Numbered from the stretch's first letter, positions 2,676 through 31,921 are shown. The stretch: DNA of 32,000 bases from Thauera sp. (GCF_034003485.1 NZ_JAVEYL010000023.1:27410-59409); one strand, 5' to 3'. A program made the numbers and translations. The notes: generated from the letters alone by a model not told the origin.

Positions 2676-2739
2676 CGCGCAGCCGGGGCGGCCTTGGCTG
2701 CGCATGGTGGACGCATCAACGACAACAGGGGAGACGAAC

Positions 2740-3672
2740 ATGGACGGCTACAAGCGGATTCCGACGGCGGCGGGCAGCATGGTCGATGCGCTCGCGCTTG
2801 GCCGTGCCTTCTGGCAGCTCACCAAACCGCGGGTGGTCGCGCTGCTGGTGCTGACCGCCTGGGTGGGCATGATGCTCGCGAGCGATGGCCTGCCCGACCT
2901 CGCCCTGATGGCGGTCGCTAGCCTGGGTATCGCGATGGTGTCGGGTGCGGCGGCGGCCTTCAACCACGTGCTGGACCAGAAGATCGACGCTCGCATGGCG
3001 CGCACCCGGATGCGTCCGCTGCCCACCGGGCGCCTGAGCAACGGGCAGGCGGTGAGCTTCGCATTCGCGCTCGCCGCCGCCGGCTTCGTGCTGCTGCTGG
3101 TTGCGGTCAATGCGCTCACTGCAGTACTGACGCTGGCCGGCCTGTTCGGCTATGCGGTGGTCTATACCGTGTTCCTGAAGCGCGCCACGCCCCAGAACAT
3201 CGTCATCGGCGGGGTGGCCGGCGCGCTGCCGCCGGTGCTCGGGTGGACGGCGATGACCGGGACCGTGGGCGCCGAGGCCCTGCTGCTGATGATGATCATC
3301 TTCACCTGGACGCCGCCGCACTTCTGGGCGCTCGCCATCCACCGCGTCGACGACTACCGCCGCGCAGGCCTGCCGATGCTGCCGGTCACCCACGGCATCG
3401 AATTCACCCGCACCCTGGTGCTGCTGTACACCGTGCTGCTGCTCGCGGTGTGCCTGCTGCCGTACCTGGTGGGGATGAGCGGGCTGCTCTACCTGGCGGG
3501 CAGCCTGGTGCTGAACCTGCAGTTCCTGCACCACGCCTGGCGGCTCAAGTTCGCCCCACGCGCCGACACGGCGATCCGCACTTTCCGCTTCTCGATCACC
3601 CACCTGATGCTGCTGTTCCTGCTGCTGCTGGTCGACCACTACCTGAAGTTCGGGCCGGGCGCGCTCCTCTGA
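2740..3672 (+). CDS. cyoE: protoheme IX farnesyltransferase (heme O synthase)
   Basis: ORF 2602..3672. GGGGAG precedes ATG 2740 (MDGYKRIP...). UbiA-family motifs are present: FNHVLDQKIDARMARTRMRPLPTGR and a polytopic TM profile. It directly follows ctaA. Confidence 0.9.
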   Translation: MDGYKRIPTAAGSMVDALALGRAFWQLTKPRVVALLVLTAWVGMMLASDGLPDLALMAVASLGIAMVSGAAAAFNHVLDQKIDARMARTRMRPLPTGRLSNGQAVSFAFALAAAGFVLLLVAVNALTAVLTLAGLFGYAVVYTVFLKRATPQNIVIGGVAGALPPVLGWTAMTGTVGAEALLLMMIIFTWTPPHFWALAIHRVDDYRRAGLPMLPVTHGIEFTRTLVLLYTVLLLAVCLLPYLVGMSGLLYLAGSLVLNLQFLHHAWRLKFAPRADTAIRTFRFSITHLMLLFLLLLVDHYLKFGPGALL

Positions 3673-3678
3673 TCGGGC

Positions 3679-5583
<1,905 letters not shown>

Positions 5584-5603
5584 TTTACCGCCGCGCGCGC
5601 CGA

Positions 5604-8507: not shown

Positions 8508-8753
8508 ATGAATGCGAAGATGCACACCAAGCGTGCCGGCATGCTGTTCGCCATCGCTGCCGCCGCCGTAATCCCCATGCAGACGGGCGCCGAGTCGCTT
8601 GCACTTGCGCCGCAGGCCGCCGTCCTCGTCGCCCAGGACTCGCCGACCGTCGTGGACAAGGAGGCCGTTGCTCCGCTCGACCTGATGCTTTTCGTGCATC
8701 GCCCCGACCTGCCGCTGCGCGCCGTCCCCACCAAGTACAAGGACCACTCATGA
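8508..8753 (+). CDS. small hypothetical protein with a predicted signal peptide (81 aa)
   Basis: This is the in-frame part of ORF 8349..8753: [30 protein letters not shown]... It has strong GC3 bias, and its stop overlaps the folE2 ATG (ATGA). I did not recognise a family. Confidence 0.45.
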
Positions 8754-11794: not shown

Positions 11795-13035
11795 TGAACG
11801 CAGTCGACCACGCCCTGCAGCCGATTGCCGGCGTCCGCCTCGCGCGCATGCCGCGCGCCACCCGCCTGTGCCTGGAGATGCTCGACCGCCTCGACGGCGG
11901 CGCGCTCGCGGTGGAGTTGCCCGACGGATTGCGCCTGCGCGCCGGTCACGGCCCGCTCGTCGCCCACCTGCGCGTGCGCGACCACGCGGTGTTCGACGAG
12001 GTGCTCGCGCGCGGCGACATCGGCTTCGGCGAGGCCTGGATGGACGGCCTGTGGGACACCGAAGACCTCACCGCGCTGCTGCGCCTGCTGTCGACCAACC
12101 GCAGCCGGCTGCAGGGGGCGATCTACGGGCGCCTGTTCCGCCTGCTCGGCCACCGCCTGCAGCATCTGCTGCGAGCCAACACGCGCACCGGTTCGCGGCG
12201 CAACATCGAGGCCCACTACGACCTCGGCAATGATTTCTATGCGCTGTGGCTCGACCCGACGATGACGTATTCGGCCGCGGTGTTCGCGTCGGCGGACGAG
12301 TCGCTGGCCGATGCCCAGTTGCGCAAGTACCGCCGCATCCTCGACGAACTCGGCGCGCAGCCGGGGCAGACCATCCTCGAGGTCGGCTGCGGCTGGGGCG
12401 GCTTCGCCGAGGTCGCCGCCACCGAGTTCGGCTGCAAGGTGCTCGGCATCACGCTGTCGCCGTCGCAACTCGAATTCGCCCGCGCGCGTGCCGAGCGCGG
12501 TGGCTTTGCCGACCGGGTGGATTTCGAGCTGTGCGACTACCGCGACGTGCGTGGCCAGTACGACCACGTGGTGTCGATCGAGATGATCGAGGCGGTGGGC
12601 GAGCGCTTCTGGCCGACCTACTTCGCCCAGCTTTCCGCGTTGCTCAAGCCCGGCGGGCGCTGCGTGGTGCAGGCGATCACGATCGACGACGCGCTGTTCG
12701 CGCGCTATCGGCGCGGCACCGACTTCATCCAGCGCCACGTCTTCCCCGGGGGCATGCTGCCCAGCCCGGGCGCGGTGGCGCAGCAGGCCGCGCGTGTCGG
12801 CCTCGACGTGGTCGGTGACTTCGCCTTCGGCCGCGATTACGCGCGCACGCTCGCGCACTGGCATCGCCGCTTCGAGGCGCAGTCCGCCGCTGTGCGCGCG
12901 CAGGGCTTCCCCGAGCGCTTCCTGCGCATGTGGCGCTTCTACCTGTCGTATTGCGAGGCGGGCTTCGAGACCGGGGACATCGACGTGCATCACTACGTCT
13001 TTGCCCACGCCGGCGCTGCGATCCGGGGAAGCTGA
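11794..13035 (+). CDS. cyclopropane-fatty-acyl-phospholipid-synthase-like SAM-dependent methyltransferase
   Basis: ORF 11494..13035. ATG 11794 overlaps the upstream stop (TGATG). Motifs: HYDLGNDFYALWLDPTMTYSAAVF, the SAM motif ILEVGCGWGGFA, and SIEMIEAVGERFWPTYF. Confidence 0.9.
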   Translation: MNAVDHALQPIAGVRLARMPRATRLCLEMLDRLDGGALAVELPDGLRLRAGHGPLVAHLRVRDHAVFDEVLARGDIGFGEAWMDGLWDTEDLTALLRLLSTNRSRLQGAIYGRLFRLLGHRLQHLLRANTRTGSRRNIEAHYDLGNDFYALWLDPTMTYSAAVFASADESLADAQLRKYRRILDELGAQPGQTILEVGCGWGGFAEVAATEFGCKVLGITLSPSQLEFARARAERGGFADRVDFELCDYRDVRGQYDHVVSIEMIEAVGERFWPTYFAQLSALLKPGGRCVVQAITIDDALFARYRRGTDFIQRHVFPGGMLPSPGAVAQQAARVGLDVVGDFAFGRDYARTLAHWHRRFEAQSAAVRAQGFPERFLRMWRFYLSYCEAGFETGDIDVHHYVFAHAGAAIRGS

Positions 13036-13598
13036 TGGCCTCGCCGCGCTGGTCCGGAGGCGTTTGCCGCGCGGGCATCCTCGCCCTCTGCCTTGCGGTC
13101 GGCTTCCCGGCGTTCGCCGTCGTGCTGCCACCTTCCGTTGCGGCGCAGCATCCAGAGTTCGACCGCGTCGGCGGCGGGGAGATGCGCTGGCTTGGCTTCA
13201 AGCTCTACGACGCCGCGCTGTGGGCGAGTGCGCGTGGCGAGGCGGCGATGGGCGACGCGCATGTGCTGTCGATTCGCTACGCGCGTGCGATCAGCAGCGA
13301 GCGCCTGGTCTCTGTCAGCCTCGACGAGATTCGCCGCCTCGGCGTCTCCGATGAGGCCCGGCTCGCGCGCTGGGGCGAGGCACTCGCCGCCGCTCTGCCC
13401 TCGGTGGAGGCGGGTGACACACTCGCTGCGCTGCACCGACCGGGCGAGGGCGCGCGGTTCTGGCACCAGGGCGAGCCGAGCGGCGAGATCCTCGACCCCG
13501 AGCTGGCGCGCGCCTTCTTCGCCATCTGGCTTGACCCGCGCACGCGCGAACCGGAATTGCGCGCGCAGTTGCTCGGGCTGGCGGACGGCGGGCGATGA
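13035..13598 (+). CDS. chalcone-isomerase-like family protein, secreted
   Basis: ORF 12930..13598. ATG 13035 overlaps the upstream stop (TGATG). It has a signal peptide (GILALCLAVGFPAFA). The LGFKLYDAALWA and FFAIWLDPRT segments resemble the bacterial chalcone-isomerase-like family often seen in this gene cluster. Confidence 0.65.
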   Translation: MASPRWSGGVCRAGILALCLAVGFPAFAVVLPPSVAAQHPEFDRVGGGEMRWLGFKLYDAALWASARGEAAMGDAHVLSIRYARAISSERLVSVSLDEIRRLGVSDEARLARWGEALAAALPSVEAGDTLAALHRPGEGARFWHQGEPSGEILDPELARAFFAIWLDPRTREPELRAQLLGLADGGR

Positions 13599-14992
13599 AA
13601 CCCGGCGCGCCAGACCCGGCCGATGCGGGCTCGGCGCCGACTACTGCGCTCGCAGCCTACGGCGCGCTCGGTCTTCCGCTGGCGTTTGCCGCGCTGCCGA
13701 TCTACGTCCATGTGCCACGGCTCTACGCCGAAGGGCTGGGTCTGTCGCTGGCGCTGGTCGGTGCGGTGCTGCTGGCCGCCCGTATCGTCGATGCGGTCAC
13801 CGACCCGCTGATCGGCTGGGCCAACGACCGCCTGCCGCGGCGCCGGCTGTGGATCGCGCTCGCGCTGCCGGTGCTGGGCGCGGGCATGGTCGGCCTGCTT
13901 GCGCCGCCGGCCGGGGCGGGCGCGCTGTGGCTGTTTGCGCTGCTGGTGCTGGTGTCGCTGGCGTATTCGGTGGCGACCATCGCCTACAACGCGTGGGGGG
14001 CCGAAGTGGGCACCACGTCCGCGGCGCGTACGCGCTTCGTCGCCAGCCGCGAGGCGTTCGCGCTGGTGGGCGTGGTGCTGGCGGCGGCGCTTCCGGGATT
14101 ACTGGGCGCAGGCGAGCTTGCCGGTCTGGCGCGCCTGGCCTGGGTCTTCCTGCCGCTGCTGGCCGGATTCGGGCTGTGGACGCTGTGGCGCGCGCCCGCG
14201 CCTCCCGCGGTACGCGCGGGAACGGCGCCGGTGTGGGCGGGCTTGCGCGCCGCGCTCGGCGAGCCGGCCTTCGCGCGCCTGCTCGCGGTGTTCGCAGCCA
14301 ACGGCATCGCCGCCGCGATCCCCTCGGCCACCGTGCTGTTCTTCGTCGCCGACGTACTGCAGGCGGCCGAGCTCGGCGGCCTCTTCCTGGTGCTGTATTT
14401 CGTCGCCGCCGCAGCCAGCTTGCCGCTGTGGCTGAGGGTGTCGCAGCGCATCGGCAAGTTGCGCGCCTGGCTGGCCAGCATGGTGCTGGCGGTGGCGGTG
14501 TTCGCGTGGGCAGGTCTGCTCGGCAATGGCGACCTGGTCGCCTACGGCTTGATCTGCGTGCTCTCGGGGCTGGCGCTCGGCGCCGACCTCAGCCTGCCGC
14601 CCTCGCTGCTCGCCGACCTGCTCGCGCGCAGCCGCGCGGAGCGGCATGCAGATGAGCGAGCGGAAGACGGGGGGCGAGCGCAGGGTCGGGTGAAAGCCCA
14701 GCCTGCGTCACTCGAGGCCGGCGCCTGCTTCGGCTGGTGGAACTTCGTCACCAAGGCCAACCTGGCGCTCGCCGCCGGGCTGGCGCTGCCGCTGCTTGCG
14801 CTGCTCGGTTATGCACCCGGTGCACGCGACGCAGCGGCGACCGCCGCGCTTGCCGGTGTGTATGGCTTCGTGCCGGTGGTGCTCAAGCTCGGCGCGATCG
14901 CGCTGTTGTGGCGCTGGCGTGGCTTGATCGAGCCCGCGCTGCCCGTCGCCCCGCCGTTGGCGGCGGCTGTTTGCAGAGGAGGTGAGGCGTGA
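13595..14992 (+). CDS. MFS transporter (GPH/MelB-like)
   Basis: ORF 13595..14992. It has about 12 hydrophobic helices and the RIVDAVTDPLIGWANDR motif typical of the GPH family. ATGA overlaps the upstream gene. Confidence 0.8.
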   Translation: MKPGAPDPADAGSAPTTALAAYGALGLPLAFAALPIYVHVPRLYAEGLGLSLALVGAVLLAARIVDAVTDPLIGWANDRLPRRRLWIALALPVLGAGMVGLLAPPAGAGALWLFALLVLVSLAYSVATIAYNAWGAEVGTTSAARTRFVASREAFALVGVVLAAALPGLLGAGELAGLARLAWVFLPLLAGFGLWTLWRAPAPPAVRAGTAPVWAGLRAALGEPAFARLLAVFAANGIAAAIPSATVLFFVADVLQAAELGGLFLVLYFVAAAASLPLWLRVSQRIGKLRAWLASMVLAVAVFAWAGLLGNGDLVAYGLICVLSGLALGADLSLPPSLLADLLARSRAERHADERAEDGGRAQGRVKAQPASLEAGACFGWWNFVTKANLALAAGLALPLLALLGYAPGARDAAATAALAGVYGFVPVVLKLGAIALLWRWRGLIEPALPVAPPLAAAVCRGGEA

Positions 14993-22148: not shown

Positions 22149-22379
22149 ATGCAAACCATTCAAGCTTCCGAATTCAAGGCCCGCTGCCTCGCCCTGATGG
22201 ACCAGGTGGCGGCCTCCGGCGAGATCCTCGTCATCACCAAGAACGGCAAGCCCGTCGCCGAACTGCATCCTTATCAGGGCGCGCGCGCATCGTCGCCTTT
22301 CGGCCTGCATCCGGGCGTGCGCATCCTGGGCGATATCGTGTCGCCGGTCGCGGACGAGGACTGGGAGGCCTTGTCGTGA
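22149..22379 (+). CDS. Phd/YefM-type antitoxin
   Basis: ORF 22149..22379. IQASEFKARCLALMDQVAASGEILVITKNGKPVAEL. GTGA overlaps the downstream PIN gene. Confidence 0.8.
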   Translation: MQTIQASEFKARCLALMDQVAASGEILVITKNGKPVAELHPYQGARASSPFGLHPGVRILGDIVSPVADEDWEALS

Positions 22380-22777
22380 TCGTCCTCGATACACACGCGC
22401 TCATCTGGATGGATGCCGACGATGCCGCGCTCGGTCCTCAGGCGCGCGCGCGCATCGAGCAGGCATGGCGCGGGGGTGAAGTTGCGGTCAGCGCGATCAG
22501 CTTCTGGGAATGCGCCATGCTTGTGGATAAGGGGCGCATTGCCCTGCCGCTTGCTGTAGACGGCTGGCGGGCAGGCCTGCTGAGTGCAGGACTGGTCGAG
22601 ATTCCGCTCGACGGCCGCATCGCGCTCGCGGCTGCGGGGCTCGCCGACCTGCATCGTGACCCGGCAGACCGCTTCATCGCCGCATCCGCGGGGGCACGCA
22701 ACGCGACGCTGGTGACGGCGGACGAGAAGCTGCTGGCATGGAACTCGGCCCTGCTGCGGCTCGATGCACGGCGCTGA
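22376..22777 (+). CDS. vapC: type II toxin VapC (PIN domain)
   Basis: This is the in-frame part of ORF 22130..22777, from GTG 22376. It begins VIVLDTHALIWM and contains HRDPADRFIAASAGARNATLVTADEKL. Confidence 0.8.
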   Translation: MIVLDTHALIWMDADDAALGPQARARIEQAWRGGEVAVSAISFWECAMLVDKGRIALPLAVDGWRAGLLSAGLVEIPLDGRIALAAAGLADLHRDPADRFIAASAGARNATLVTADEKLLAWNSALLRLDARR

Positions 22778-22948
22778 GCGGCGTTCTGTTGCACGTCCGC
22801 AACAACAAAGGCTGGAATGTCGCGTTTTAGTGCTTCCAGGCTTGCAAGGTGGGCGGCAGGTTTGCAGAATCGCTCCAACTTCTCGCCAGAGAGGTGAGTA
22901 GGGCCAAGGCAAGTGCCTGGTCTCAACTTCAAATTTGAGGAGAAACAC

Positions 22949-23998
22949 ATGCAAAAGAAACTGATCGCGCTGGCTGTTGCTGGCCTCGTTTCGGCCCCGG
23001 CCTTCGCTCAGTCGAACGTGACCATCTACGGTGTGGCTGACGCCTACATGGCGTTTGGTGACCACGGTGACAACGACATGGGCGCCATCAACAGCGGCGG
23101 CCTGTCGGGTTCGCGTCTCGGTTTCCGCGGCGTCGAAGATCTGGGCAACGGCCTCAAGGCTGTGTTCACCTTCGAACAGGGCTACAACGTCGATGACGGC
23201 ACGGGCCTGGGTGGCAACTCGCGTCAGTCGTTCGTTGGCCTCTCGGGTGGTTTCGGTACCGTTAGCCTGGGTCGTCAGTACGCTCCTGGTTACGACTTCA
23301 TTGCTGACTCTTTCGGTAGCTCGCCGATCCTGTCGCCGCAAGCGATCCTTTCGGGCGCCGTGGGTTCGACGATCGATGCCAGCTCTGACGCTCGTTGGAA
23401 CAACTCCGTCGCCTACAACGGCGCTTTCTCGGGCCTGAAAGTTCGCGCCATCTACTCGATGGACGCTGATGTTAGCGGTCGTTCTGCGACCGAAGTTGGT
23501 ACCGATCCGTATGATGACGACGCGCTGGGCCTGGGCCTCGATTATTCGAACGGCCCGCTGCGTGTCGCCGCTGTTTACCAGTACCTGAAGGATGGTGTTG
23601 GCAGCGCAACTTCGGACGATCAGACGGAATGGTCGGTTGGTGGTAGCTACAACTTTGGTATCCTGACTCTGGCCGCCAACTACCAAGACTATGAGGCTGT
23701 TGGTAACCTCAGCGGTAACGACGGTGACATTTGGCAGGTTGGCGTGGTGGTGCCGGTTGGCGCTGCTGGCAACGTCCATCTGGGCTACGGTGAACTCGAC
23801 GCGGATCTTGCCGATGCCAAGGCTAAGTCCTACTCGATCGCTTACACGCACGCTCTGTCGAAGCGCACGACCGCTTACGCTGGCTACAACCGCACTGACA
23901 ACGATACTGGCCTGAACATCGGTGTTGTCCCCGCGCCGGCTGGCGTGACCGGCGAAGAAGCTGACGTCTTCGCTGTTGGCGTTCGCCACACCTTCTAA
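22949..23998 (+). CDS. outer-membrane general porin (betaproteobacterial OmpC-like / porin_4 type)
   Basis: This is the in-frame part of ORF 22913..23998. GAGGAG precedes ATG 22949. It has a signal peptide (MQKKLIALAVAGLVSAPAFA), then QSNVTIYGVAD, alternating beta-strand patterns, and a C-terminal F (AVGVRHTF). Codon usage differs from its neighbours, as in a highly expressed gene. Confidence 0.9.
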   Translation: MQKKLIALAVAGLVSAPAFAQSNVTIYGVADAYMAFGDHGDNDMGAINSGGLSGSRLGFRGVEDLGNGLKAVFTFEQGYNVDDGTGLGGNSRQSFVGLSGGFGTVSLGRQYAPGYDFIADSFGSSPILSPQAILSGAVGSTIDASSDARWNNSVAYNGAFSGLKVRAIYSMDADVSGRSATEVGTDPYDDDALGLGLDYSNGPLRVAAVYQYLKDGVGSATSDDQTEWSVGGSYNFGILTLAANYQDYEAVGNLSGNDGDIWQVGVVVPVGAAGNVHLGYGELDADLADAKAKSYSIAYTHALSKRTTAYAGYNRTDNDTGLNIGVVPAPAGVTGEEADVFAVGVRHTF

Positions 23999-24024
23999 TC
24001 TGTTCTCAAGACAGGTTTGAAAGT

Positions 24025-24052
24025 AAAAACGGGCCTTCGGGCCCGTTTTTTC
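24025..24052 (+). terminator. rho-independent terminator of the porin gene
   Basis: Stem ACGGGCC (24029..24035), loop TTCG, stem GGCCCGT (24040..24046), followed by a T-run. Confidence 0.8.
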
Positions 24053-24072
24053 GTTCACGCTCACCACATCAA

Positions 24073-24092
24073 CCGTCGCGTTACACGACGCT
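24073..24092. repeat. island palindrome family, copy (CGTCG-N7-CGACGCT)
   Basis: The sequence is cCGTCGcgttacaCGACGCT, directly after the integrase stop codon (24093..24095) at the left edge of the island. Confidence 0.5.
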
Positions 24093-25397
24093 TTAGCGCA
24101 GTGGATCGAGCTTGAAAAACTCGCCCGACAGCCTGCCTGCGTGCCAGTTCGCCATCAGTTCTTCCTTGTGTAGTTCGATCCACGCATTCACCAGCATCTG
24201 CTTGTTGCGCGGCAGCTCGCCGAAGATGGGCTTGTTGGCGGCAATGTCGAAACCCGCTTCCAGTCCCTCATACATCGCGAGCAGAAACGGCGCGGTGGGC
24301 TTCTTGGTCTTGGGCATTGGCAGCGCAACGATGATGCCGTGGTAAGCGGAGATCATCCGCAGGTCAGTCACACAGGGGCGCTGAGAGGGTGGCCGCGTGT
24401 ACAAGTGCGCGATGTCGAGTCCCGAGAACGCCAACCTGCTGACCGCTTCGAACAGTGGTTCCAATGGATACTGCTCGTTGCCATAACGACGACTGGCACG
24501 CTGCTGCGTGTGACCTGACAGTGCGTCGTGCACTTCCTCCTCGATGCCCACCGCGCGACACGCATCCTTGAAGGTGTGGCGGAACGAGTGGAACACCTTG
24601 CGACTGTCGGTGATGCCCACTTTGCTGCGCAGGTAGATCGAGAACCACGTGCTGAAGTAGCCGCCGAGCTTGCCGCGACCGTTGGCACGTAGTTCGGGGA
24701 ACAGCAGACCAGGTCGCCGCGCACGTGCCACGTAGTCGAGAAAGCCACAGTCGAGCAGTTGGGGATGTAGTGGGATGCGACGACGGGACGCGGCGTTTTT
24801 CAACTGTGCGTGTGCTGCGTCGTCGGTGATGCTGAGGTAGTGACCCAGCGTGTCGTCGTGCCGCACATCGGCCACCATCAACTGTGCCAACTCTTCCACC
24901 CGCGCACCCGTAAAAAGCGCCAGCAGCGGCAACCAGTAAGCCGCTTCACGACCGCCGCCTTTGGGAAACTTGCGCTGGGTATAAACCTCGCTTTGAAACA
25001 GGCGGTTCAACTCGTCGGCAGTAAAGGCCACGCGTGCTTTCTGCTGCGGCGTGGCGATGGCCCGCACATCGGCTGCTGGATTGTGGGCCGTATGCTGGTA
25101 GTCGATGGCGGTGCGGAAGAAGCCTTTGAGAATGCCGATTTTGTGGTTTGCGGTGACGGCGCTTTGTCCTGCTGCCAGCAAGTGATCACGAAAGGCCAGC
25201 ACATCACGGCGCTCGATCTCGGCAAGTGGCTTGTGCTCCACGAACACGGCGAACGAGTCGAACACCTTGCGATACTCGACAATGGTTGTCGCTCGTCGCT
25301 TGGTTGATGTGCGCTGCCACTGCTCGAACAACTCGTCGTAAGCGGCCGTGGCTGGCGCTGCTGTCGTGCTCGATGTGGATGTGCTTGTGCGTGTCAT
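24093..25397 (-). CDS. tyrosine-type site-specific integrase fused in frame to a DUF4160-like C-terminal domain
   Basis: ORF 24093..25397. Catalytic signature: FTGARVEEL (Arg), HSFRHTF (HxxR), SGH, RRY (Tyr). Residues 348-434 (MISAYHGIIVAL...LPRNKQMLVNAWIELHKEELMANW...FFKLDPL) resemble a complete DUF4160 protein, including its own Met. Confidence 0.85.
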   Translation of the reverse strand: MTRTSTSTSSTTAAPATAAYDELFEQWQRTSTKRRATTIVEYRKVFDSFAVFVEHKPLAEIERRDVLAFRDHLLAAGQSAVTANHKIGILKGFFRTAIDYQHTAHNPAADVRAIATPQQKARVAFTADELNRLFQSEVYTQRKFPKGGGREAAYWLPLLALFTGARVEELAQLMVADVRHDDTLGHYLSITDDAAHAQLKNAASRRRIPLHPQLLDCGFLDYVARARRPGLLFPELRANGRGKLGGYFSTWFSIYLRSKVGITDSRKVFHSFRHTFKDACRAVGIEEEVHDALSGHTQQRASRRYGNEQYPLEPLFEAVSRLAFSGLDIAHLYTRPPSQRPCVTDLRMISAYHGIIVALPMPKTKKPTAPFLLAMYEGLEAGFDIAANKPIFGELPRNKQMLVNAWIELHKEELMANWHAGRLSGEFFKLDPLR

Positions 25398-25408: not shown

Positions 25409-25429
25409 AGCGTCGTGAAACGCGACGCT
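25409..25429. repeat. island palindrome family, copy (AGCGTCG-N7-CGACGCT)
   Basis: The sequence is AGCGTCGtgaaacgCGACGCT, 12 bp upstream of the integrase start. Confidence 0.6.
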
Positions 25430-25485
25430 ACGAGAAAGTGTGTGTGACCGTCCCATTACGCGACGCTTGAGAGATTGAATGCGTG

Positions 25486-25506
25486 AGCGTCGCGTAAAGA
25501 GACGCT
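25486..25506. repeat. island palindrome family, copy (AGCGTCG-N7-aGACGCT)
   Basis: The sequence is AGCGTCGcgtaaagAGACGCT. Its first 12 nt are the exact reverse complement of TTACGCGACGCT at 25456..25467. Confidence 0.55.
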
Positions 25507-25511
25507 TGCGA

Positions 25512-25946
25512 TCACTTCGGCTTGCGCACGATGCTGGCTGTGACGCTCTCGATGGCGCTGTCCAGTTCGCCCGCTTCGGCAGCCTGCTTGATCGTGGTAA
25601 GCGTCGGCACAATCTCAGCCGTGCTTTCCAGCTCGACCGCGTTCGTGTTCTTGCTGAGCGGCAGCACCTTGTTGCCATAGCGGATCGCAAGTTGAACCTT
25701 GCCGTTTGCTTCCCACCACCACGCCTTCACTTTCTTTTGCGCTTCGACGGTGACGCGCTCGCCCGTCTCTTCGTTGCGCACCTTGCGCTTGCTCTTGAGT
25801 TCGAAGCTCGCGCCTTCGTACACCGAGCGTGCCCACTCAATCTGCTCGGTAAGCTGCTTGATGAGTTTTGCGCGTCGTTGCTGTTGCGGGGAAAGCTCGT
25901 TAGGACGCTTGGCGGAAACAAGCTTGAGGGTGTTCAGCAGTGCCAT
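25512..25946 (-). CDS. hypothetical protein (144 aa, Lys/Glu-rich)
   Basis: ORF 25512..25946. GGAG lies 9 nt upstream of the ATG. MALLNTLKLVSAKRPNELSPQQQRRAKLIKQL...KVKAWWWEANGKVQLAIRYGNKVL. I could not confidently name a family. Confidence 0.6.
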   Translation of the reverse strand: MALLNTLKLVSAKRPNELSPQQQRRAKLIKQLTEQIEWARSVYEGASFELKSKRKVRNEETGERVTVEAQKKVKAWWWEANGKVQLAIRYGNKVLPLSKNTNAVELESTAEIVPTLTTIKQAAEAGELDSAIESVTASIVRKPK

Positions 25947-27606
25947 TTTCGACGCTCCATGTGTGTATGTTGTATGGATAGTTTATGGTCGATGCTGGCG
26001 TCGGACGACCGAAATTTGTCGCTGGCTGCTCCACCGAGAACTGCGCTTGTAGTGCTGCCTTCTCGATTGCGCATTGAGTTGCGAACTGCTCCTCTTCACG
26101 GATGTGCCGATGGTGTGCTTGCTCTTGGCGCGCTACCTCGGCAGAGTCGCTGAGGTATGGCTTCAGTTCTTTACCTTCCAGATGCCAGTAAGGAATGCCC
26201 GTCTGCTCTCTCATTTCAAGTTCGATGGTCGCTTTTAGCTCAGCGCCCAGTTTTCGATCCAAAATCACTGCGTCGTGTATCGAGGCGACGACCTGGCGCC
26301 CCTTGCTGGTTACGATTTTCTTCACGGCATCCATCGCCCACGTTTCGAAATGCTGATAGAGAAATGCGATAACGAGTGGTTTGCTTATGCGTCCGCTCTC
26401 CGTTCTCAATCGTGGGCTATCGAGTAAGGTCGGTATTTCTTTTAATGCGTAGGCATAGATCAACTCATCCATCACCTTCTGTTCCTGAATGAAGCCGCGG
26501 ATGGGTGCGCAAGTCAGAAAGCGACGGCGGTGGATCGGGTTTTTGATGATGTCGACTAATGCGGGGTTGTGCCAACTTCCATTCTTTAACCAGCCGCTTC
26601 GCTGCTCGCGTGCGCCAAAACTGATTGCCGTGATCGCTTGTTTGACGATGCGTTTCTGTAGATCCTCGTTGACGTTATCGTCCTTCTTGAATGTTAGTAA
26701 GCATATCTCCTTGACGATCGCAGGTTTGTCATCGATGAAGTAAATGCTGTTCTTAAATAGCGCGTCGGGTCTCGCACTTGGGTCAAGGGTTCGCGCTAAA
26801 TCGCTTCCCATACCGACCTTCCAAGATATGACGGCCGATCGTATGTCGTATTCCCAGCAGCCGCCATACATCGCTCGCCGTAGTTGCTTGCGAACAGACT
26901 GCGCACTGATGCCTTCGTAGTAGGTGCGGCCAAAAGCGCTTGGCTTGCGTCGTTGAAGATAAATGCCGCCCAGCTCGGTCGCGATGTTCAGAATGTGCGC
27001 AGCTTGGGTGAGGTCGGTGAGCCGCTTGTCCTCGGTTAAATGCTTGGGCTTTGTCTTGAGCCAATCGATGTAAGCCTGTAGTGACTTTGTGTTGACGGGT
27101 GTGGGGTCGAAGATTTCGAATAGCTCAGCTAGGCTGTTGATGGTCGCTGCTTCTGGATAGGTGCGGTCGATGAGGCTGCGTCCAGTTTGACTGCTGTCAC
27201 TGCCGCTCAACAGTTGAGCAGTTGCGCTATTGGTGCTTCCGAACTGCGCGATGTTGTCGAAGGTGATTGTGACTAAGGGCGAGAGCTTTACTTGCGAGAG
27301 TTTGTGGGTGAGGTTATTGCCTCGTTCGACGGCAATGACCAACGACAGCTTGTTCTGTTCAAGCCACTTATGTAGTCGTATCTTGTCGCGTCCGAGCTGT
27401 CCGCCTTTATTGCTCAGCGTGTGTAGCGATAGGCTGTATAGGTTGAGTTTGCTTTGCGCGGGTGTGCGCCCGTTGACGACAGACCTGGTAATCAAGTCTT
27501 CGAGGGTGGTGACGTATTTCTTGAGTGCGCGCGCGACGTTTGACGTTGGGAATGCCTCGGTGAGTGCGCGCGATACTTTCTCATCTACTTGTATATTGAT
27601 CGACAT
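25900..27606 (-). CDS. 568-aa protein with family-A (Pol I / T7-like) single-subunit polymerase-like motifs; function unknown
   Basis: ORF 25900..27606. AGGAGG lies upstream of ATG 27606. By-eye motifs: SAFGRTYY (aa 224-231), EYDIRSAVIS (D254), KQAITAISFG (K322..F330-G331) and ASIHDAV (H444-D445). Their order and spacing resemble palm/fingers motifs A, B and C. The call is not supported by any search. Confidence 0.7.
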   Translation of the reverse strand: MSINIQVDEKVSRALTEAFPTSNVARALKKYVTTLEDLITRSVVNGRTPAQSKLNLYSLSLHTLSNKGGQLGRDKIRLHKWLEQNKLSLVIAVERGNNLTHKLSQVKLSPLVTITFDNIAQFGSTNSATAQLLSGSDSSQTGRSLIDRTYPEAATINSLAELFEIFDPTPVNTKSLQAYIDWLKTKPKHLTEDKRLTDLTQAAHILNIATELGGIYLQRRKPSAFGRTYYEGISAQSVRKQLRRAMYGGCWEYDIRSAVISWKVGMGSDLARTLDPSARPDALFKNSIYFIDDKPAIVKEICLLTFKKDDNVNEDLQKRIVKQAITAISFGAREQRSGWLKNGSWHNPALVDIIKNPIHRRRFLTCAPIRGFIQEQKVMDELIYAYALKEIPTLLDSPRLRTESGRISKPLVIAFLYQHFETWAMDAVKKIVTSKGRQVVASIHDAVILDRKLGAELKATIELEMREQTGIPYWHLEGKELKPYLSDSAEVARQEQAHHRHIREEEQFATQCAIEKAALQAQFSVEQPATNFGRPTPASTINYPYNIHTWSVENGTAEHPQACFRQAS

Positions 27607-27646: not shown

Positions 27647-27669
27647 GTGTGACTTTTTAAAAGTCACAC
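27647..27669. repeat. 23-bp perfect palindrome GTGTGACTTTT-T-AAAAGTCACAC
   Basis: It has 11-bp arms and lies 41-63 bp upstream of the polymerase-like ORF start. It overlaps a possible -35 (GTCACA) that is followed 17 nt later by CATAAA on the minus strand. Confidence 0.6.
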
Positions 27670-28068
27670 GCTTATAGTAATAAGTTGTCTCTCTTTATTG
27701 ATGAATGATGATGGGTGTGATGGGTGCGAAGCAAGCGCATTCCTCCTTTCTTTCTTTTTTGGGTTGCGCTTTGTTTGTTTTGTTTTGCTTTTCTGCGCAG
27801 CGCAGGCGTAGACGCGTTAAAAAGCGCTGTGGCGCGTTTTTTGGGTGTCGGGAATGTGTGGGTAGCTGGGCGGCGCGCTTGCCGCTTAAAACGCGTTTAA
27901 ACGCGTCGGTGTGTCGCGCACTAAAAACCAAAGAGAATAGTGAAAAGCTTTGATTCTGCGCTAAGTCTTTGAAAGTTAATAACCCGCTGCTGCGCAATGC
28001 GCGGTTGTCCTCATAGAACCAAAGAAAACATAATAAATGCGCTTGAATTATTTGATTCTGGAGGGCGT

Positions 28069-28641
28069 ATGGGACAAGCGAGAGTGATGACGGCAGCAGA
28101 GGTGCGGCGGGTGCTGGACTACGTGGCAACGAGGCCGCACGCAGCACGCAACAGGGCGTTGGTGCTGATGTCACATTGGGCGGGGCTGCGCGCGAAGGAG
28201 ATCGCCGCGCTGCGCTGCTGCGATGTGGTCGATGGAGCGGGGCGGGTGAAGGAAGAAGTGCTGCTGTCGGTCGAGCAGACCAAGGGCAAGCGTGGGCGCG
28301 TGGTGTACTTGGGGACCAAGATTCGCAAGGAACTCGCCACCTACCTGCGCGCCTGTCCGCCGCGCAGTGACGCATCGCCACTCTTTCCGACGCAGAAAGC
28401 ACCGACGCGCGGCTTCTCGGCGAACACGATGGCGCAGTTCTTCCACAAGCTCTACAAGGAAGCGGGCATCGAGGGTGCCAGCTCACACAGCGGTCGGCGC
28501 AGCTACTTGACGACCCTTGCCGACAAAGGCACAAGCATCCATATTCTCAAGACGCTGGCAGGGCATCAGAGCATCAGCACCACTGCGGTGTACTTGTTCA
28601 GCAGCCCATCGCAACTGAAGGCAGCAGCCGATTTGGTCTAA
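28069..28641 (+). CDS. short tyrosine recombinase (catalytic domain only, 190 aa)
   Basis: This is the in-frame part of ORF 27997..28641. GGAGGG precedes ATG 28069. Catalytic residues: WAGLRAKEI (Arg), TKGKRGR (Lys), SHSGRRS (HxxR), LAGHQSISTTAVYL (His, Tyr). There is no N-terminal core-binding domain. Confidence 0.8.
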   Translation: MGQARVMTAAEVRRVLDYVATRPHAARNRALVLMSHWAGLRAKEIAALRCCDVVDGAGRVKEEVLLSVEQTKGKRGRVVYLGTKIRKELATYLRACPPRSDASPLFPTQKAPTRGFSANTMAQFFHKLYKEAGIEGASSHSGRRSYLTTLADKGTSIHILKTLAGHQSISTTAVYLFSSPSQLKAAADLV

Positions 28642-28661: not shown

Positions 28662-29060
28662 GTGCGGGACTTCGAGAAGGCGTTGTGCGAGTGGGCGCAG
28701 GAGTATGACGAATACGAGGAGTGCCCCGACGCGATCAGCATCGTGTTCGACGGCTATAGCGAATCAGACGAAGAGGAAGGCTTAGAGGAAGCGCTACGGA
28801 AGCGATGCTACGCCGTCTTCGTTCACAAACAGTCGGCAACCGAACGCTTTGTATTCCCAGAACATGACACGATACATAGGTGGATCTTACATAGGCCTGA
28901 CGTGGAGGCGTGCTTTTATGTCTGGCTTCGCGCAGACGGCCAGGTAGAGTTTATTACGCAACTTGATAATGCTGCGGATGAAACGTGGGCGCGGGAGGTG
29001 ATTATGGCGCTGTGGCGGAAAGAGCGTGGCGAGGATGAAGAAGACAGTAGCGTCGTTTAA
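28662..29060 (+). CDS. hypothetical acidic protein (132 aa)
   Basis: ORF 28662..29060. GTG start with AGGAGAGGAG upstream, 20 nt after the recombinase stop. It has Asp/Glu-rich N- and C-terminal parts. I did not recognise a family. Confidence 0.55.
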   Translation: MRDFEKALCEWAQEYDEYEECPDAISIVFDGYSESDEEEGLEEALRKRCYAVFVHKQSATERFVFPEHDTIHRWILHRPDVEACFYVWLRADGQVEFITQLDNAADETWAREVIMALWRKERGEDEEDSSVV

Positions 29061-29069
29061 CGCGACGCT
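29049..29069. repeat. island palindrome family, copy (AGCGTCG-N7-CGACGCT)
   Basis: The sequence is AGCGTCGtttaacgCGACGCT. It spans the stop codon of 28662..29060, between convergent genes. Confidence 0.6.
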
Positions 29070-29412: not shown

Positions 29413-30078
29413 TCATAGCACTGTTAGTTGTAGTCGTTTAGGAGGAATCGGTGTTTTTCGAGTGGCTATTAGATCGTCAAGTTGGTTGAGGTAGCCGCGA
29501 AGGTCACCAGTTTTGACGACAGAGAGTTGTTTAACGAGCTCCGCTTGTGTAATCGCGATGTTCTCGTTGGCAAGTATTGAGGTCGCGCGAGGCAAGAATG
29601 AGTGAACGGAAATGGCTGGAAACTCGACACAGCGGCAGCGGGAGCGGATGCTTTGATGGATGGCCATTTGATTGTTGGTTGTGGCGAAGAGTGTGATGCG
29701 ATCAGCGAACGAATCCAGCGCCGTCCAGAGCTTTACGAGGTTTTTGGTGGCGTTATCGAACTCGTGTAGCACGAGGTAATAGCGCGCGTTCTCGTCCCCT
29801 AATTTAGTTAACTGGCATTGACGTTGTAGGTAGTCTTTCAAGTCTTTTTGGTCGAGAAGCTCAGAATAGTCCTTTTCTTCGACTATGGCGGACTCACCGC
29901 TGATCGCGTAGGGCAGTAGATCAGCAACGGTCGTTTTTCCAGTTCCGTTTGGCCCATAAAAGATGATGTTTTGGATGAGGTCGCCTCGGGCGACGGTGTT
30001 GATAAACTCGCGAACACTTTCGTTCGGGTAAATCACATCGGCAAGCGTGGTGGGCTTGTATTTGATTTGGCAGTTCAT
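29413..30078 (-). CDS. AAA+ ATPase resembling clamp-loader subunits (T4 gp44 / RFC small subunit-like), 221 aa
   Basis: ORF 29413..30078. Motifs: IKYKPTTLADVIYP (RFC box II-like KYRP), GPNGTGKTT (Walker A), LVLHEFD (Walker B position with His in place of Asp), LFATTNN (sensor 1) and IRSRCRCVEF (SRC motif). Confidence 0.8.
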   Translation of the reverse strand: MNCQIKYKPTTLADVIYPNESVREFINTVARGDLIQNIIFYGPNGTGKTTVADLLPYAISGESAIVEEKDYSELLDQKDLKDYLQRQCQLTKLGDENARYYLVLHEFDNATKNLVKLWTALDSFADRITLFATTNNQMAIHQSIRSRCRCVEFPAISVHSFLPRATSILANENIAITQAELVKQLSVVKTGDLRGYLNQLDDLIATRKTPIPPKRLQLTVL

Positions 30079-30108: not shown

Positions 30109-30918
30109 TTAAGCGGCGAGGCGCTCAACGGTAGGTTTTTTGGCGTAAGCGGACAGTTCCGCGTTGTCGCGGTTTTGCGCGTGGGCAGTTTCGAGATTTT
30201 GTTTTGCGATTCGAGTCAGCAGTTGGTTATAGATGATGTCATCGACGTCGAGCAGCGCAGCGACCACATCGACAGTGCCATCGAGTTTGGGTCGAGCAAG
30301 AAAGATAGCGTGATTTTTTGTGGCACCCGCAAACTCGAACGTGGCAAGAGGTTTTGCCGTATTCGTTTCAATGTCAGCGAGAGTCGCGTTTTTTGAGTTG
30401 GCGAGATCAGCGGCCTTTTTGATGGCGTCCTCGCTCTTTTTGATTTGGCGACGAACTTCTTCAATGCCGCCGTTATCGCGCAGCCAGTTCGCGAGCCCGT
30501 CATAGGTCACGCCGTGCGACTTTGCGGCAGTGAGAACGGACACATAACGATTGGCGCGCTTGCGGTCGGAGTTGAAGACGTAGCGGATGAACATGGTGAG
30601 CATGGTTGTGTTGCTTTGAACTTTGATGCCGCGTTCGTTGAGCGCCGCGGTGAGGTCGAGGCGGAGTTTTTTGCGCTCAGCGTCTTTTGCGTTGATGAAG
30701 TTTTCGTCGTAGAGCTTCAGGCAGTCAGCCAGCAGTCCGTAAAGGATGTCGGTCGCGGTTTTGTATTCGTTGTCAGTCCATGCCGCGCAACGCGTATGGA
30801 TAGCGTCGAGAGACGCGACGGTGGTGTTGGCGAACAAGTCGGCGTGAGCGTTGGTGGTTGCGCGGGCGATGGACGTGCGAACAGTGGCGTTGAGGCGGGA
30901 AGTGGAAGTCTTAGTCAT
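30109..30918 (-). CDS. hypothetical protein (269 aa)
   Basis: This is the in-frame part of ORF 30109..31029. GAGGT precedes ATG 30918 (MTKTSTSRLNATV...). It ends 30 nt before the AAA+ gene. I did not recognise a family. Confidence 0.65.
   Translation of the reverse strand: MTKTSTSRLNATVRTSIARATTNAHADLFANTTVASLDAIHTRCAAWTDNEYKTATDILYGLLADCLKLYDENFINAKDAERKKLRLDLTAALNERGIKVQSNTTMLTMFIRYVFNSDRKRANRYVSVLTAAKSHGVTYDGLANWLRDNGGIEEVRRQIKKSEDAIKKAADLANSKNATLADIETNTAKPLATFEFAGATKNHAIFLARPKLDGTVDVVAALLDVDDIIYNQLLTRIAKQNLETAHAQNRDNAELSAYAKKPTVERLAA
30802..30822. repeat. island palindrome family, copy inside a CDS (AGCGTCG-N7-CGACGgT)
   Basis: The sequence is AGCGTCGagagacgCGACGGT, within the 5' part of the 30109..30918 gene. 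Confidence 0.45.
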
Positions 30919-31060
30919 TTGGATTACCTCGTTAGGTTGTCGACGTAGCGGGTTGGAAGGAGATGCCGTGTGTGCTGCGTCGATGGGTGTAGTATCCGCT
31001 GTTAGCTGTTTGGGTAATACAAACCACAAAAACGTCGATCGAACTGGTTAACATCTTTGT

Positions 31061-31921
31061 ATGGCTACGAAGCGGCCGCGCCAGGCGTGGCATCTCTCAG
31101 GCACCGACTTCACGCAGCCAAGGCTCTACGCGCGGCAGGACTGGCGCTTCTTGCTCTTCTTTCAGTTCCTGCGTATCAGCCCGAGCTATGCGCTGGCGCT
31201 CGACTGTGAGCGCGAGCAGGAACTCGCGGAGCGTCTGGGCAGCGCGGAACGAGCGCGCAAGGTGTGGCGCACGCGGTGTGATATGGGGGATGTGTTCACC
31301 GTCCTGTTCAAGGACTGGTGGCAGGCACGCGGGCTCTCGCTTTTCGGCATACACACGGCCAAGCCCCGAGTAGTGGGCATCCGTCGCTTGCGGCCAAATG
31401 AAGACGCCGATGAGCGGCGTAAGCGTGTAGGTGCTGCTTATCGCCGCTTTGTCGAGGGGCGGTATAGAGAGCAGGGAAACCCCGACTCAGTGCTGATCTC
31501 GGTTCCGTTAGGAATGAAGCCTGCGTTGATGGTGCGACAGTTGAAACAACTGCTGGCGGAGGTCCAGGCTGAGCATCCGCCCGAACTACCAGTAGCGGCA
31601 TACGCCCTTGAGGAAAACAAGTTGCGCGAGGCGAGGCTCCTTGCGTGCTTGCGCCTGATCTACAAGCGCAGCGCGCGGCCCGACGAGGAACTATGGCGCG
31701 CTGCGGCACGGGCCAAGATCAGCGAAACGCATGTCGTCGATCCGCTGGCGAAGAAGAAGGACGCCAAGAGTGCCGAGGCACGACGTATGCTGACGATCAT
31801 GGCAAGTCGCCTGTCGCGTGACGCACTCATGATTGCCGAGAACGCTGCGGCGGGTAAATTTCCATCGATGGAAGGTAAGCGCTCCACGAACCCCATCCTT
31901 CCGGGGCTCGCTACGCTGTGA
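31061..31921 (+). CDS. hypothetical protein, 3' end probably replaced by an IS insertion
   Basis: ORF 31061..31921 (MATKRPRQAWHLSGTDFTQPRLYARQDWRFLLFFQFLRISPSY...). The last ~15 codons lie beyond a GTAAGCG motif at 31875 that looks like an IS66-family terminus. Confidence 0.6.
   Translation: MATKRPRQAWHLSGTDFTQPRLYARQDWRFLLFFQFLRISPSYALALDCEREQELAERLGSAERARKVWRTRCDMGDVFTVLFKDWWQARGLSLFGIHTAKPRVVGIRRLRPNEDADERRKRVGAAYRRFVEGRYREQGNPDSVLISVPLGMKPALMVRQLKQLLAEVQAEHPPELPVAAYALEENKLREARLLACLRLIYKRSARPDEELWRAAARAKISETHVVDPLAKKKDAKSAEARRMLTIMASRLSRDALMIAENAAAGKFPSMEGKRSTNPILPGLATL

Follow-up and report, generated by a model that had tools for sequence, protein, structure and literature searches.

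The DNA analyzed here is a stretch of 32,000 nucleotides from Thauera sp. (NZ_JAVEYL010000023.1:27410-59409), hereafter the window, in which positions 25900-27606 on the minus strand hold an open reading frame (ORF) of 568 amino acids with an ATG start. According to our analysis, the product of this gene, here called POL, is best explained as an active polymerase of the TV-Pol (transposon-virus polymerase) type that is encoded by a core gene of an integrative element and would carry out priming and copying together with a neighboring DUF6641 protein. We give this reading as a whole a probability of roughly 0.6. The evidence for it comes from the motifs of the ORF and their conservation, from the predicted fold, from the linkage of POL to DUF6641 and to recombinases, and from its distribution across bacterial islands and phage contigs.

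Sequence motifs and conservation of the polymerase

A sequence-only reading of this DNA had picked out four motifs of family-A polymerases, in order, within the 568-residue ORF, and all four are present when the translation is read against E. coli Pol I. The first of them, SAFGRTYY, had been placed at residues 224-231 and sits one residue earlier, at 223-230 (26917..26940; like all POL features on the minus strand), where it forms a beta-hairpin with the invariant R227. Motif A is found in CWEYDIR (residues 250-256, 26839..26859), a strand ending in the predicted catalytic residue D254, which is also part of EYDIRSAVIS (residues 252-261). The O-helix-like motif B corresponds to KRIVKQAITAISFGA (residues 318-332, 26611..26655) with K322, T326, F330-G331 and A332; the shorter stretch RIVKQAITAISFG (residues 319-331) holds K322 and F330-G331. 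Motif C, a beta-turn-beta element, is VVASIHDAVI (residues 439-448, 26263..26292) with H444 and the predicted catalytic D445. The residue after H444-D445 is Ala, Gly or Cys in the homologues and never Glu as in the HDE of Pol I.

With the E. coli polA gene sequence itself as the reference, R227, D254, K322, F330-G331, Q418 and H444-D445 of POL are collinear with R668, D705, K758, Y766-G767, Q849 and H881-D882 of Pol I. The distance from the arginine hairpin to motif A is 27 residues in POL (R227-D254) and 37 in Pol I (R668-D705), that from motif A to motif B 68 (D254-K322) and 53 (D705-K758), that from motif B to the conserved glutamine 96 (K322-Q418) and 91 (K758-Q849), and that from the glutamine to motif C 27 (Q418-D445) and 33 (Q849-D882). 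The spacings proposed earlier, 68 residues from A to B and 123 from B to C, hold. Two shared motifs can be added to the four. In the first, a glutamine follows the arginine at a distance of 9 in both proteins (R227-Q236 in POL, R668-Q677 in Pol I) and is itself followed by an (I/L)R-x-A motif (LRRAM and IRQAF, respectively). The second is a Y-Q-x-x-E helix whose Q418 pairs with Q849 of Pol I; in POL it reads YQHFET (residues 417-422, 26341..26358) and is conserved among the homologues.

A search of 5.8 billion proteins, in which the best 8000 candidates were scored, recovered more than 480 homologues. All of these are unnamed or "hypothetical" and none carries a Pfam domain; the nearest named homologues are from Thauera, with 88% identity. 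An exhaustive hidden Markov model (HMM) search of 1.84 billion cluster representatives, the clusters being formed at 50% identity, gave 784 clusters at E<=1e-3, of which 343 reached E<=1e-30. Conservation was read from an alignment of 47 homologues (A1) and from one of 66 reaching down to 22% identity (A4), and a third alignment (A3) holds seven sequences of the clade of MAP_030, an ORF of cyanophage Ma-LMM01. Invariant in A1 (47/47) are S223, F225, G226, R227, Y229, Y230, D254, R256, K322, F330, G331, A332, Y417, Q418, H419, E421, T422, H444, D445 and A446. In A4, R227, R243, F330, G331, E421, H444 and D445 are kept in all 66 sequences, and D254, K322 and Q418 in 65 each. Seven relatives on viral contigs of IMG/VR, with 22-31% identity, retain the motif residues throughout (R227, R243, D254, K322, F330, G331, A332, E375, Y417, Q418, E421, H444 and D445, each in 7/7). 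The three residues singled out as catalytic in the sequence-only reading, D254, K322 and D445, are thus kept across both alignments and the phage relatives.

These alignments show strict purifying selection on what we predict to be the active-site set, namely D254 and D445 for metal binding, K322 of the O-helix, R227 for the template and Q418 for the minor groove. Since these residues are so strictly conserved, POL is almost certainly active, and we predict it to be a template-dependent nucleotidyl transferase that lacks proofreading. The 47 sequences of A1 share no invariant acidic residue in the stretch 1-220, where only position 167 is Asp or Glu in at least 80% of the sequences of A4. Because conserved acidic residues are missing from this region, a DEDD-type 3'-5' exonuclease site is absent, in agreement with the earlier remark that the protein has no exonuclease domain.

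The fact that no database family recognizes POL would be in keeping with an inactive, decayed remnant or with an artefact ORF of G+C-rich DNA. This explanation is effectively refuted by the conservation described above, with 784 clusters and full-length conservation that includes invariant catalytic residues. The confident fold prediction speaks against it as well, and so does the local G+C content of about 0.50-0.53, at which long spurious ORFs are unlikely.

Predicted fold

All structural arguments are based on a predicted model of POL, which was made with AlphaFold2 on alignment A1 and reached a mean predicted local distance difference test score (pLDDT) of 80 and a predicted template modeling score (pTM) of 0.66, with low-confidence parts at residues 118-138 and 525-568. 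The model begins with an alpha/beta N-terminal domain (residues ~1-140) that has no family match, followed by a thumb consisting of a short two-helix unit (residues ~170-211) and by palm and fingers (residues 215-520). Its elements can be laid on the Pol I core as thumb helices 173-184 and 192-211, the arginine hairpin of strands 215-222 and 228-231, the motif A strand 250-255, the O-helix-like helix 314-329, the YQHxET helix 409-434 and the motif C hairpin of strands 439-443 and 446-449. The C-terminal tail (residues 525-568, 25903..26034) has a pLDDT below 50 and, as judged from the alignment of the spacer between POL and DUF6641, is confined to Thauera-type proteins.

Foldseek returned 54 matches of the model in the PDB with E<=1e-3, and the best 50 of these 54 were all family-A DNA polymerases (E 5e-6 to 7e-4), among them Taq/KlenTaq, Klenow, Bst, Aquifex Pol I, T7 DNA polymerase, the apicoplast polymerase, Pol nu and the Pol I of phage G20c. 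The structural comparison that the sequence-only reading had suggested therefore came out in favor of family A. Against the solved polymerases, the template modeling (TM) scores stay near 0.3. Such low values are to be expected of an enzyme that has several domains and whose fingers and thumb can move, and the list of matches is entirely consistent. Taken together with the lack of a PF00476 or PDB profile match and of exonuclease residues, the fold bears out the earlier description of POL as a minimal, highly divergent right-hand polymerase.

No single-subunit RNA polymerase is found among the best 50 of the 54 PDB matches, and the predicted fold of POL is therefore closer to DNA polymerases than to T7-like RNA polymerases. 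A single-subunit, DNA-dependent RNA polymerase of the T7 type, serving the genes of the element, might nevertheless be read from motif C, where H-D-A/G/C is like the H-D-S of T7 RNA polymerase and not like the H-D-E of Pol I. It might also be read from Val259 and Thr326, which replace E710 and F762 of Pol I in a register inferred from the motifs. In T7 RNA polymerase, the hydroxyl group of Y639 selects ribonucleoside triphosphates (rNTPs), and the corresponding position in POL is an invariant Phe (F330, 66/66). POL, with its 568 amino acids, is moreover without the promoter-recognition and N-terminal domains of T7-like RNA polymerases, which measure 800-1100 amino acids, and sigma70-like sequences precede the genes of the element. 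We consider an RNA polymerase very unlikely on these grounds.

Linkage to DUF6641 and to recombinases

The gene directly downstream of POL in the window, on the same strand, encodes a DUF6641 protein of 144 amino acids (25512..25946, minus strand; Pfam PF20346, E 7e-9; phrog_31551, E 8e-27). The neighborhoods of POL were compared in 80 genome loci, where neighbor counts are approximate because ORF calling was crude (longest ORFs). In 60 of the 80, DUF6641 is no further than 5 kb from POL, many of the remaining loci being truncated contigs, and it nearly always stands directly downstream of POL on the same strand. Among 41 POL-DUF6641 pairs, the two genes are separated by 108-169 nucleotides in 33, and in five Thauera-type pairs they overlap by 47 nucleotides.

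The spacer between the two genes (25944-26061 on the minus strand of the window; found in 33 loci, for example L033:11578-11695) is about 110-120 nucleotides long and strongly conserved as DNA, although the proteins of these loci are only about 40-45% identical to those of the window. It contains a promoter-like core, TTGTCC-N17-ATAAAT, and an AAGGAG ribosome-binding site. Thauera-type POL genes read through the spacer DNA, which gives rise to the disordered tail of residues 525-568 and to the 47-nucleotide overlap with DUF6641. A structured RNA in the spacer was considered and rejected, as RNAalifold gave a weak fold only (-5 kcal/mol, two covarying pairs).

The DUF6641 protein is basic, with an isoelectric point of 9.8 overall, 10.2 in the N-terminal half and 5.2 in the C-terminal part. 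In its AlphaFold2 model (pLDDT 81, from eight sequences), a long helix (residues 20-44) is accompanied by five short strands and, toward the C-terminus, by two further helices. Pfam gives a weak match to the beta-arm of HU/IHF (E 0.034; "RNEETGERVTV"), which is no more than a hint of DNA binding, and we regard DUF6641 as a candidate accessory or DNA-binding subunit of POL.

Beyond this pair, a recurrent gene order was recognized, which runs small recombinase, DUF6876, POL, DUF6641, c6, c4 (<), c7 (>), c8, c12, c10 (<) and integrase; clusters 9 and 16 are a second integrase and a zeta-toxin-like kinase, respectively. The gene next to DUF6641 is mostly c6, a low-complexity protein of 180 amino acids without Pfam match, or an integrase. 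The divergent pair c4 and c7 recurs beside POL and DUF6641; 32 loci have c4, and 26 have c7, no further than 5 kb from POL. Recombinases flank the POL module in most loci, and the small recombinase cluster, which is near POL in 39 of the 80, is a member of the element core.

This fixed position bears on the possibility that POL is an accessory repair or translesion polymerase carried as cargo, which would extend primers without priming and have no role for the element. The structural neighbors of POL are primer-dependent Pol I enzymes, the polymerase CcPol of the SCCmec cassette on its own only extends primers (PMC7581432), and Proteobacteria do carry auxiliary family-A polymerases such as those of the CHEAP cluster (PMC10201439), all of which would fit such a role. 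A cargo gene is, however, hard to reconcile with a gene that is fixed in the element core beside recombinases and whose relatives in small phage genomes would be expected to serve replication. The missing exonuclease and the very short thumb are, in addition, typical of prim-pol-like enzymes of mobile elements, and we hold a repair polymerase to be quite unlikely.

The company of POL also has to be weighed with respect to DNA entry. Instead of replicating the element vegetatively, POL might, together with DUF6641, convert incoming single-stranded DNA (ssDNA), delivered by conjugative mobilization or transduction, into double-stranded DNA like the primases of plasmid leading regions, or it might act in defense or anti-defense. 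This explanation would be suited by the islands of the Limnohabitans type, in which the pair is surrounded by genes characteristic of transfer and leading regions or of conflict systems (DUF6876, DUF3293, Macro domain, H-NS, DNA methylase and zeta-toxin-like kinase), and by the element loci in having no recognizable helicase or initiator. On the other hand, the loci read showed no relaxase, type IV secretion system or coupling protein, and the synteny of POL and DUF6641 with recombinases marks them as element core and not as variable cargo. PADLOC holds no model for either protein. A defense system was rejected in this search, in which POL and DUF6641 had no match and the AAA+ protein of the island generic P-loop matches only. 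We therefore judge a role in DNA entry or defense to be unlikely and prefer that of a core polymerase of the element.

Freshwater Burkholderiales, including Limnohabitans, Polynucleobacter, Comamonadaceae and Oxalobacteraceae, make up most of the hosts of the 80 loci. Distant relatives of POL on IMG/VR contigs lie near terminase and portal genes, and this occurrence on both islands and phage contigs gives the family a "transposon and virus" distribution. Some single genomes hold three to four diverged copies, as seen in Limnohabitans Rim28 (L012, L023, L036) and Burkholderiales 39-55-53 (L029, L037, L054, L073), which points to repeated acquisition or intragenomic spread. In a variant from Limnohabitans Rim28 (L005/L023, 6500-18700), DUF6641 is divergent from POL instead of downstream of it; the island of this variant also encodes a cytosine DNA methylase, DUF6876, DUF3293, a Macro-domain protein and an H-NS-like protein.

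Probable membership in the TV-Pol family

TV-Pols were predicted computationally by Iyer, Abhiman and Aravind (2008; PMC2579912) as a minimal Pol I/T7 RNA polymerase-like domain with a predicted primase-polymerase function, and were proposed to be a minimal, possibly ancestral form of the Pol I/T7 RNA polymerase superfamily. They were described from bacterial elements bearing integrases, resolvases or transposases, from a plastid island, from Ma-LMM01 and from Sputnik. Examples are Sputnik V13 and virophage replication proteins, with fusions of the polymerase to a D5 helicase, and stand-alone TV-Pols without helicase fusion were allowed for in the same paper (PMC2579912). Its alignment includes an entry "Thauera sp.", the genus from which the closest named homologues of POL come. 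The sequence-only reading had called an integrase next to such a polymerase unusual. An integrase is indeed adjacent (24093-25397), but this is the typical habitat of a TV-Pol and nothing out of the ordinary (PMC2579912).

Comparison of the model with viral structures in the BFVD by Foldseek ranked full-length uncharacterized proteins of uncultured tailed phages first (A0A6J5NAK1, E 3e-28, TM 0.64/0.71). These were followed by virophage and giant-virus proteins of about 700-1000 amino acids, for example the "DNA replication protein" of Zamilon (V6BPG7, E 2.6e-9), and only below them by ordinary phage Pol I enzymes at about 1e-5. The virophage proteins, the nearest named structures in this library, are the polymerase-D5 helicase fusions that the TV-Pol family was defined for. 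A direct comparison with a cyanophage protein was made through MAP_030 of Ma-LMM01, an ORF of 506 amino acids that adjoins two annotated transposases. The TV-Pol of this phage is located in an element integrated into the phage genome (PMC2579912). Since the transposase neighbors fit that statement, MAP_030 is likely to be the TV-Pol in question. Its motifs GLRVYEKGGGLQ...NYD, VKTAVLAVINGAR, LLQRIE and QHDG resemble FGRTYYEGISAQ...EYD, VKQAITAISFGAR, LYQHFE and IHDA of POL.

The A1 HMM had no match among the ORFs of the first 50 kb of Ma-LMM01, and when A1 was compared by hhalign with MAP_030 as a single sequence, the only outcome was a local match without meaning. In the profile-profile alignment of A4 with A3, by contrast, residues 225-455 are aligned with 229-411 and every invariant residue of both families is in register. 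Structural ranking and collinear alignment, drawn from a predicted model and from sequence comparison, make a good but not conclusive case for POL as a member of the TV-Pols. We thus place POL within, or as close sister to, a family that has been known from computation since 2008, and therefore not as a new kind of enzyme.

Biochemically, the family is almost unstudied. A reclassification of family-A polymerases in 2023 did not mention TV-Pols and named the CCPols as too few for a cluster (PMC10201439), and Bebel et al. (2020; PMC7581432) noted that TV-Pol members other than CcPol of SCCmec were without biochemical study. Our search of the full-text literature likewise brought up biochemical studies of CcPol but of no other TV-Pol, and it found no paper that treats DUF6641 by name. 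We also found no description of the fixed POL-DUF6641 pair, of a helicase-less element family of this kind or of its abundance in freshwater Betaproteobacteria.

Proposed function

We posit that POL is a catalytically competent, exonuclease-less, minimal family-A-like polymerase from the core of a small integrative mobile element, with a gene that is co-transcribed with, or directly precedes, the one for the small basic DUF6641 protein. After excision of the element, or after its entry as ssDNA, POL would start and extend strands on the element's own DNA. DUF6641 would act as a template-binding accessory subunit, and the pair would form a primase-polymerase like CcPol-MP of SCCmec. The host would supply helicase and clamp, and in Thauera-type elements a clamp-loader-like ATPase may help. 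The product would be DNA and not RNA, and the pair would serve the replication of the element.

A more far-reaching version of this proposal can be put forward tentatively, and we think it rather doubtful as it stands. In it, POL and DUF6641 would be a two-subunit primase-polymerase for the helicase-less autonomous replication of an undescribed, widespread family of small elements in freshwater Burkholderiales and Thauera. The accessory subunit would have a fold unrelated to that of MP, an OB-fold protein, and POL might use both rNTPs and deoxyribonucleoside triphosphates (dNTPs). Such relaxed substrate use is conceivable in view of the steric-gate Glu and discriminator Phe found in Pol I, neither of which POL has. 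In Pol I, E710 and F762 exclude ribonucleotides. The roles of these two residues have been covered by Bebel et al. (2020; PMC7581432), and an ancestral "prim-pol" state has been postulated for the whole Pol I/T7 RNA polymerase superfamily (Iyer et al., 2008; PMC2579912).

Several results count against POL as an active TV-Pol that works with DUF6641. At the level of sequence, POL has no PF00476 match even at E<=1 in Pfam, where it gave one noise match only, and no match in PHROGs, NCBIfam or PADLOC; neither phmmer nor hmmsearch, the latter run with A1 and A4, found a polymerase in the PDB. The best PDB sequence match, the repeat protein Crov588 (E 0.0066), is made up of several short repeated stretches and was discarded as spurious. 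Nor did tblastn with the POL protein match any of 50,697 phage records or 72,556 plasmid records. The link to the TV-Pols has weak points of its own: the A4-A3 alignment, in which one profile is a shallow one of seven sequences, has a pairwise E of 0.0018 but only 15% probability, the equation of MAP_030 with the TV-Pol of the 2008 paper is an inference, and in the RxxxK motif of TV-Pols the residue at -4 of K322 is variable (K318 here), the one at -3 being usually Lys or Arg in A1. For DUF6641, Foldseek gave no PDB match below E 0.97, so that an OB fold is not supported, and a PDB profile search gave nothing below E 0.18; a PCNA fragment in this search was dismissed as noise. The DUF6641 profile had no match at E<=1 in the phage-contig loci, of which seven out of eight were scanned. 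Finally, no helicase was found in the element core, in the 80 neighborhoods or in the core clusters, where TV-Pol and CcPol systems normally have one.

The family is compact and large, its active-site set is completely conserved and its small partner is fixed, which makes it a good candidate for study. It raises the questions of how a Pol I-type active site could start chains de novo, how sugars would be selected without the Glu and Phe gates, and whether small integrative islands that lack a helicase replicate by themselves. With this assignment, names could also be given to proteins now called "hypothetical", which number in the hundreds in Limnohabitans, Polynucleobacter, Thauera and freshwater phages.

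The genomic island of the window

The Thauera-type element measures about 8 kb and is bounded by a tyrosine integrase; the left end of the island lies beyond the window. G+C content falls from about 0.70 to 0.50-0.58 in the POL stretch, and that of the island is below that of the host. Starting with its terminal gene, the island reads integrase, DUF6641, POL, small recombinase (+), an ORF of 132 amino acids (+), an ORF of 113 amino acids, AAA+ ATPase, c7 and c4 (+), with genes on the minus strand unless noted. Sigma70-like sequences precede the genes of the element.

The integrase (24093..25397, minus strand, 434 amino acids) is the terminal gene of the island and matches phrog_1 (E 5e-34) and the SAM-like and Phage_integrase domains of Pfam. 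Its C-terminal residues 349-434 form a DUF4160/DhiT-like domain (Pfam E 4e-8; NCBIfam toxin_DhiT, E 1.7e-8; phrog_14333, E 5e-15), a fusion that is unusual for a tyrosine recombinase. A stand-alone DUF4160 remnant of 58 amino acids is present near a neighboring porin gene in a Thauera metagenome-assembled genome (MAG). The small tyrosine recombinase (27997..28641, plus strand; PF00589, E 4e-24; phrog_216, E 2e-39) is divergent from POL and consists of the catalytic domain only.

The AAA+ ATPase (29413..30078, minus strand, 221 amino acids) is clamp-loader-like, of the type of the RFC small subunit and the DnaX N-terminal part (phrog_168, E 4e-29; NCBIfam RFC small subunit, E 3e-17). Its cluster (36) occurs only in the window and in loci L001-L003 and is thus restricted to Thauera-type elements; unrelated genes of about 160-220 amino acids (clusters 8, 12 and 51) take its position in the other versions. 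The divergent core genes c7 (30109..31029, minus strand) and c4 (31061..31921, plus strand) have no family match.

A palindromic 21-bp motif, AGCGTCG-N7-CGACGCT, has seven matches in the window with at most two mismatches, six of which lie in the island against 0.63 expected (24072-24092, 25409-25429, 25447-25467, 25486-25506, 29049-29069 and 30802-30822). The copy at 24072-24092 marks the island end, directly after the stop codon of the integrase and the terminator of the porin gene (24018-24057), and three copies, spaced by 38-39 bp, separate the integrase gene from that of DUF6641. L001, the Thauera MAG, has the motif at 5573-5595, 8543-8565, 12088-12197 and 13502-13524, and both ends of its island carry it. 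The motif could mark sites bound by a recombinase or a regulator, or represent iterons or hairpin terminators. About 40 bp upstream of the POL start, within the 390-bp region between the divergent POL and small recombinase genes, lies another palindrome, GTGTGACTTT-TTA-AAAGTCACAC (27647-27669), which is perfect, has arms of 10 bp and may serve as operator or origin element.

The surroundings of the island were compared between the window and the MAG. In the latter, the same module of about 8 kb lies between porin genes, three tandem paralogues at 2469-3581, 4212-5216 and 13602-14696. In the window, a porin gene (22913-23998) with a strong terminator hairpin (24018-24057) stands just outside the island. 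This suggests that the surroundings of porin genes are an integration hot spot or have seen repeated insertion. Also just outside the island, at 22149-22777, translations and the Pfam labels of the homologous Thauera locus indicate a PhdYeFM-type antitoxin and a PIN-domain (VapC-like) toxin, and several such toxin-antitoxin pairs are present in the same neighborhood of the MAG. No tRNA gene that could serve as an integration target was found in the window.

Comparison with known polymerase systems

POL has the palm-fingers-thumb fold, the order and spacings of the motifs and the two-Asp catalytic site in common with Pol I/Klenow, Taq and T7 DNA polymerase. Its SAFGRTYY hairpin corresponds to TGR668LSS of Pol I and to the hairpin with the "absolutely conserved arginine" of TV-Pols, KRIVKQAITAISFGA to K758...Y766-G767 of Pol I and to VKTAVLAVINGAR of MAP_030, and YQHFET to Q849-GTAAD of Pol I. 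It differs from these canonical enzymes in having no PF00476 match, neither a 3'-5' nor a 5'-3' exonuclease, a short thumb, HDA in place of HDE and no Glu steric gate, and identity in the structural alignments is 9-14%.

The likeness to TV-Pols extends over several features. The two antiparallel thumb helices of the family are matched in the model by helices 173-184 and 192-211 directly before the arginine hairpin, the hairpin itself by strands 215-222 and 228-231 with R227, and the RRM-like palm with two metal-binding Asp by D254 (65/66) and D445 (66/66). As in TV-Pols, there is no nuclease fusion or linkage, with no nuclease family among the conserved neighbor clusters scanned, and the location in mobile elements and viruses is matched by the two tyrosine recombinases of the window and the relatives on phage contigs. 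Both have a size of 400-600 amino acids and escape the standard sequence models of Pol I. The fingers, which in TV-Pols are inserted behind the first strand of the palm and bear RxxxK, have in POL a helix (314-329) with the conserved K322. POL departs from the family in that RxxxK is reduced to [KR]xxK or xxxK, that the fused or linked D5-like helicase of TV-Pols is absent, and that residues 1-117 are predicted to be mixed alpha/beta, whereas the TV-PolN domain is all-helical. The constant downstream partner DUF6641 is a further difference, as no such partner is mentioned for TV-Pols in the 2008 paper (PMC2579912).

In organization, the closest parallel is CcPol-MP of SCCmec. CcPol is a truncated Pol I-like polymerase that binds ssDNA and acts as a de novo dNTP primase only with the small protein MP (PMC7581432). 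MP was later modeled as an OB fold, and related "PolA-SSB" pairs were found in islands of Bacillota (PMC10061031). The two systems share a polymerase without working exonuclease and with a short thumb, a small protein without family directly after it, and an island with site-specific recombinases. The proposed function, priming and extension encoded by the element, would be alike as well. CcPol is, however, a recognizable derivative of Pol I that is annotated as family A and keeps E710 and F762 (PMC7581432), and it is closest to the CHEAP cluster (PMC10201439). POL has diverged much further and, by register, has Val and Thr in their place. In the Bacillota, the Cch/Cch2 helicase comes after CcPol-MP and the recombinases used are large serine recombinases, whereas POL-DUF6641 comes with tyrosine recombinases and no helicase in Betaproteobacteria, and the OB-fold beta-barrel of MP contrasts with DUF6641, which has no OB-fold match. 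Because of the differences in fold, helicase and recombinases, we propose an analogy of organization and not membership.

Pipolins, with their primer-independent PolB, and casposons are further removed. Their polymerases belong to family B, without sequence or structural relation to the A-like POL, but they embody the same concept, that of an integrative element with its own DNA polymerase, capable of starting synthesis, near recombinases.

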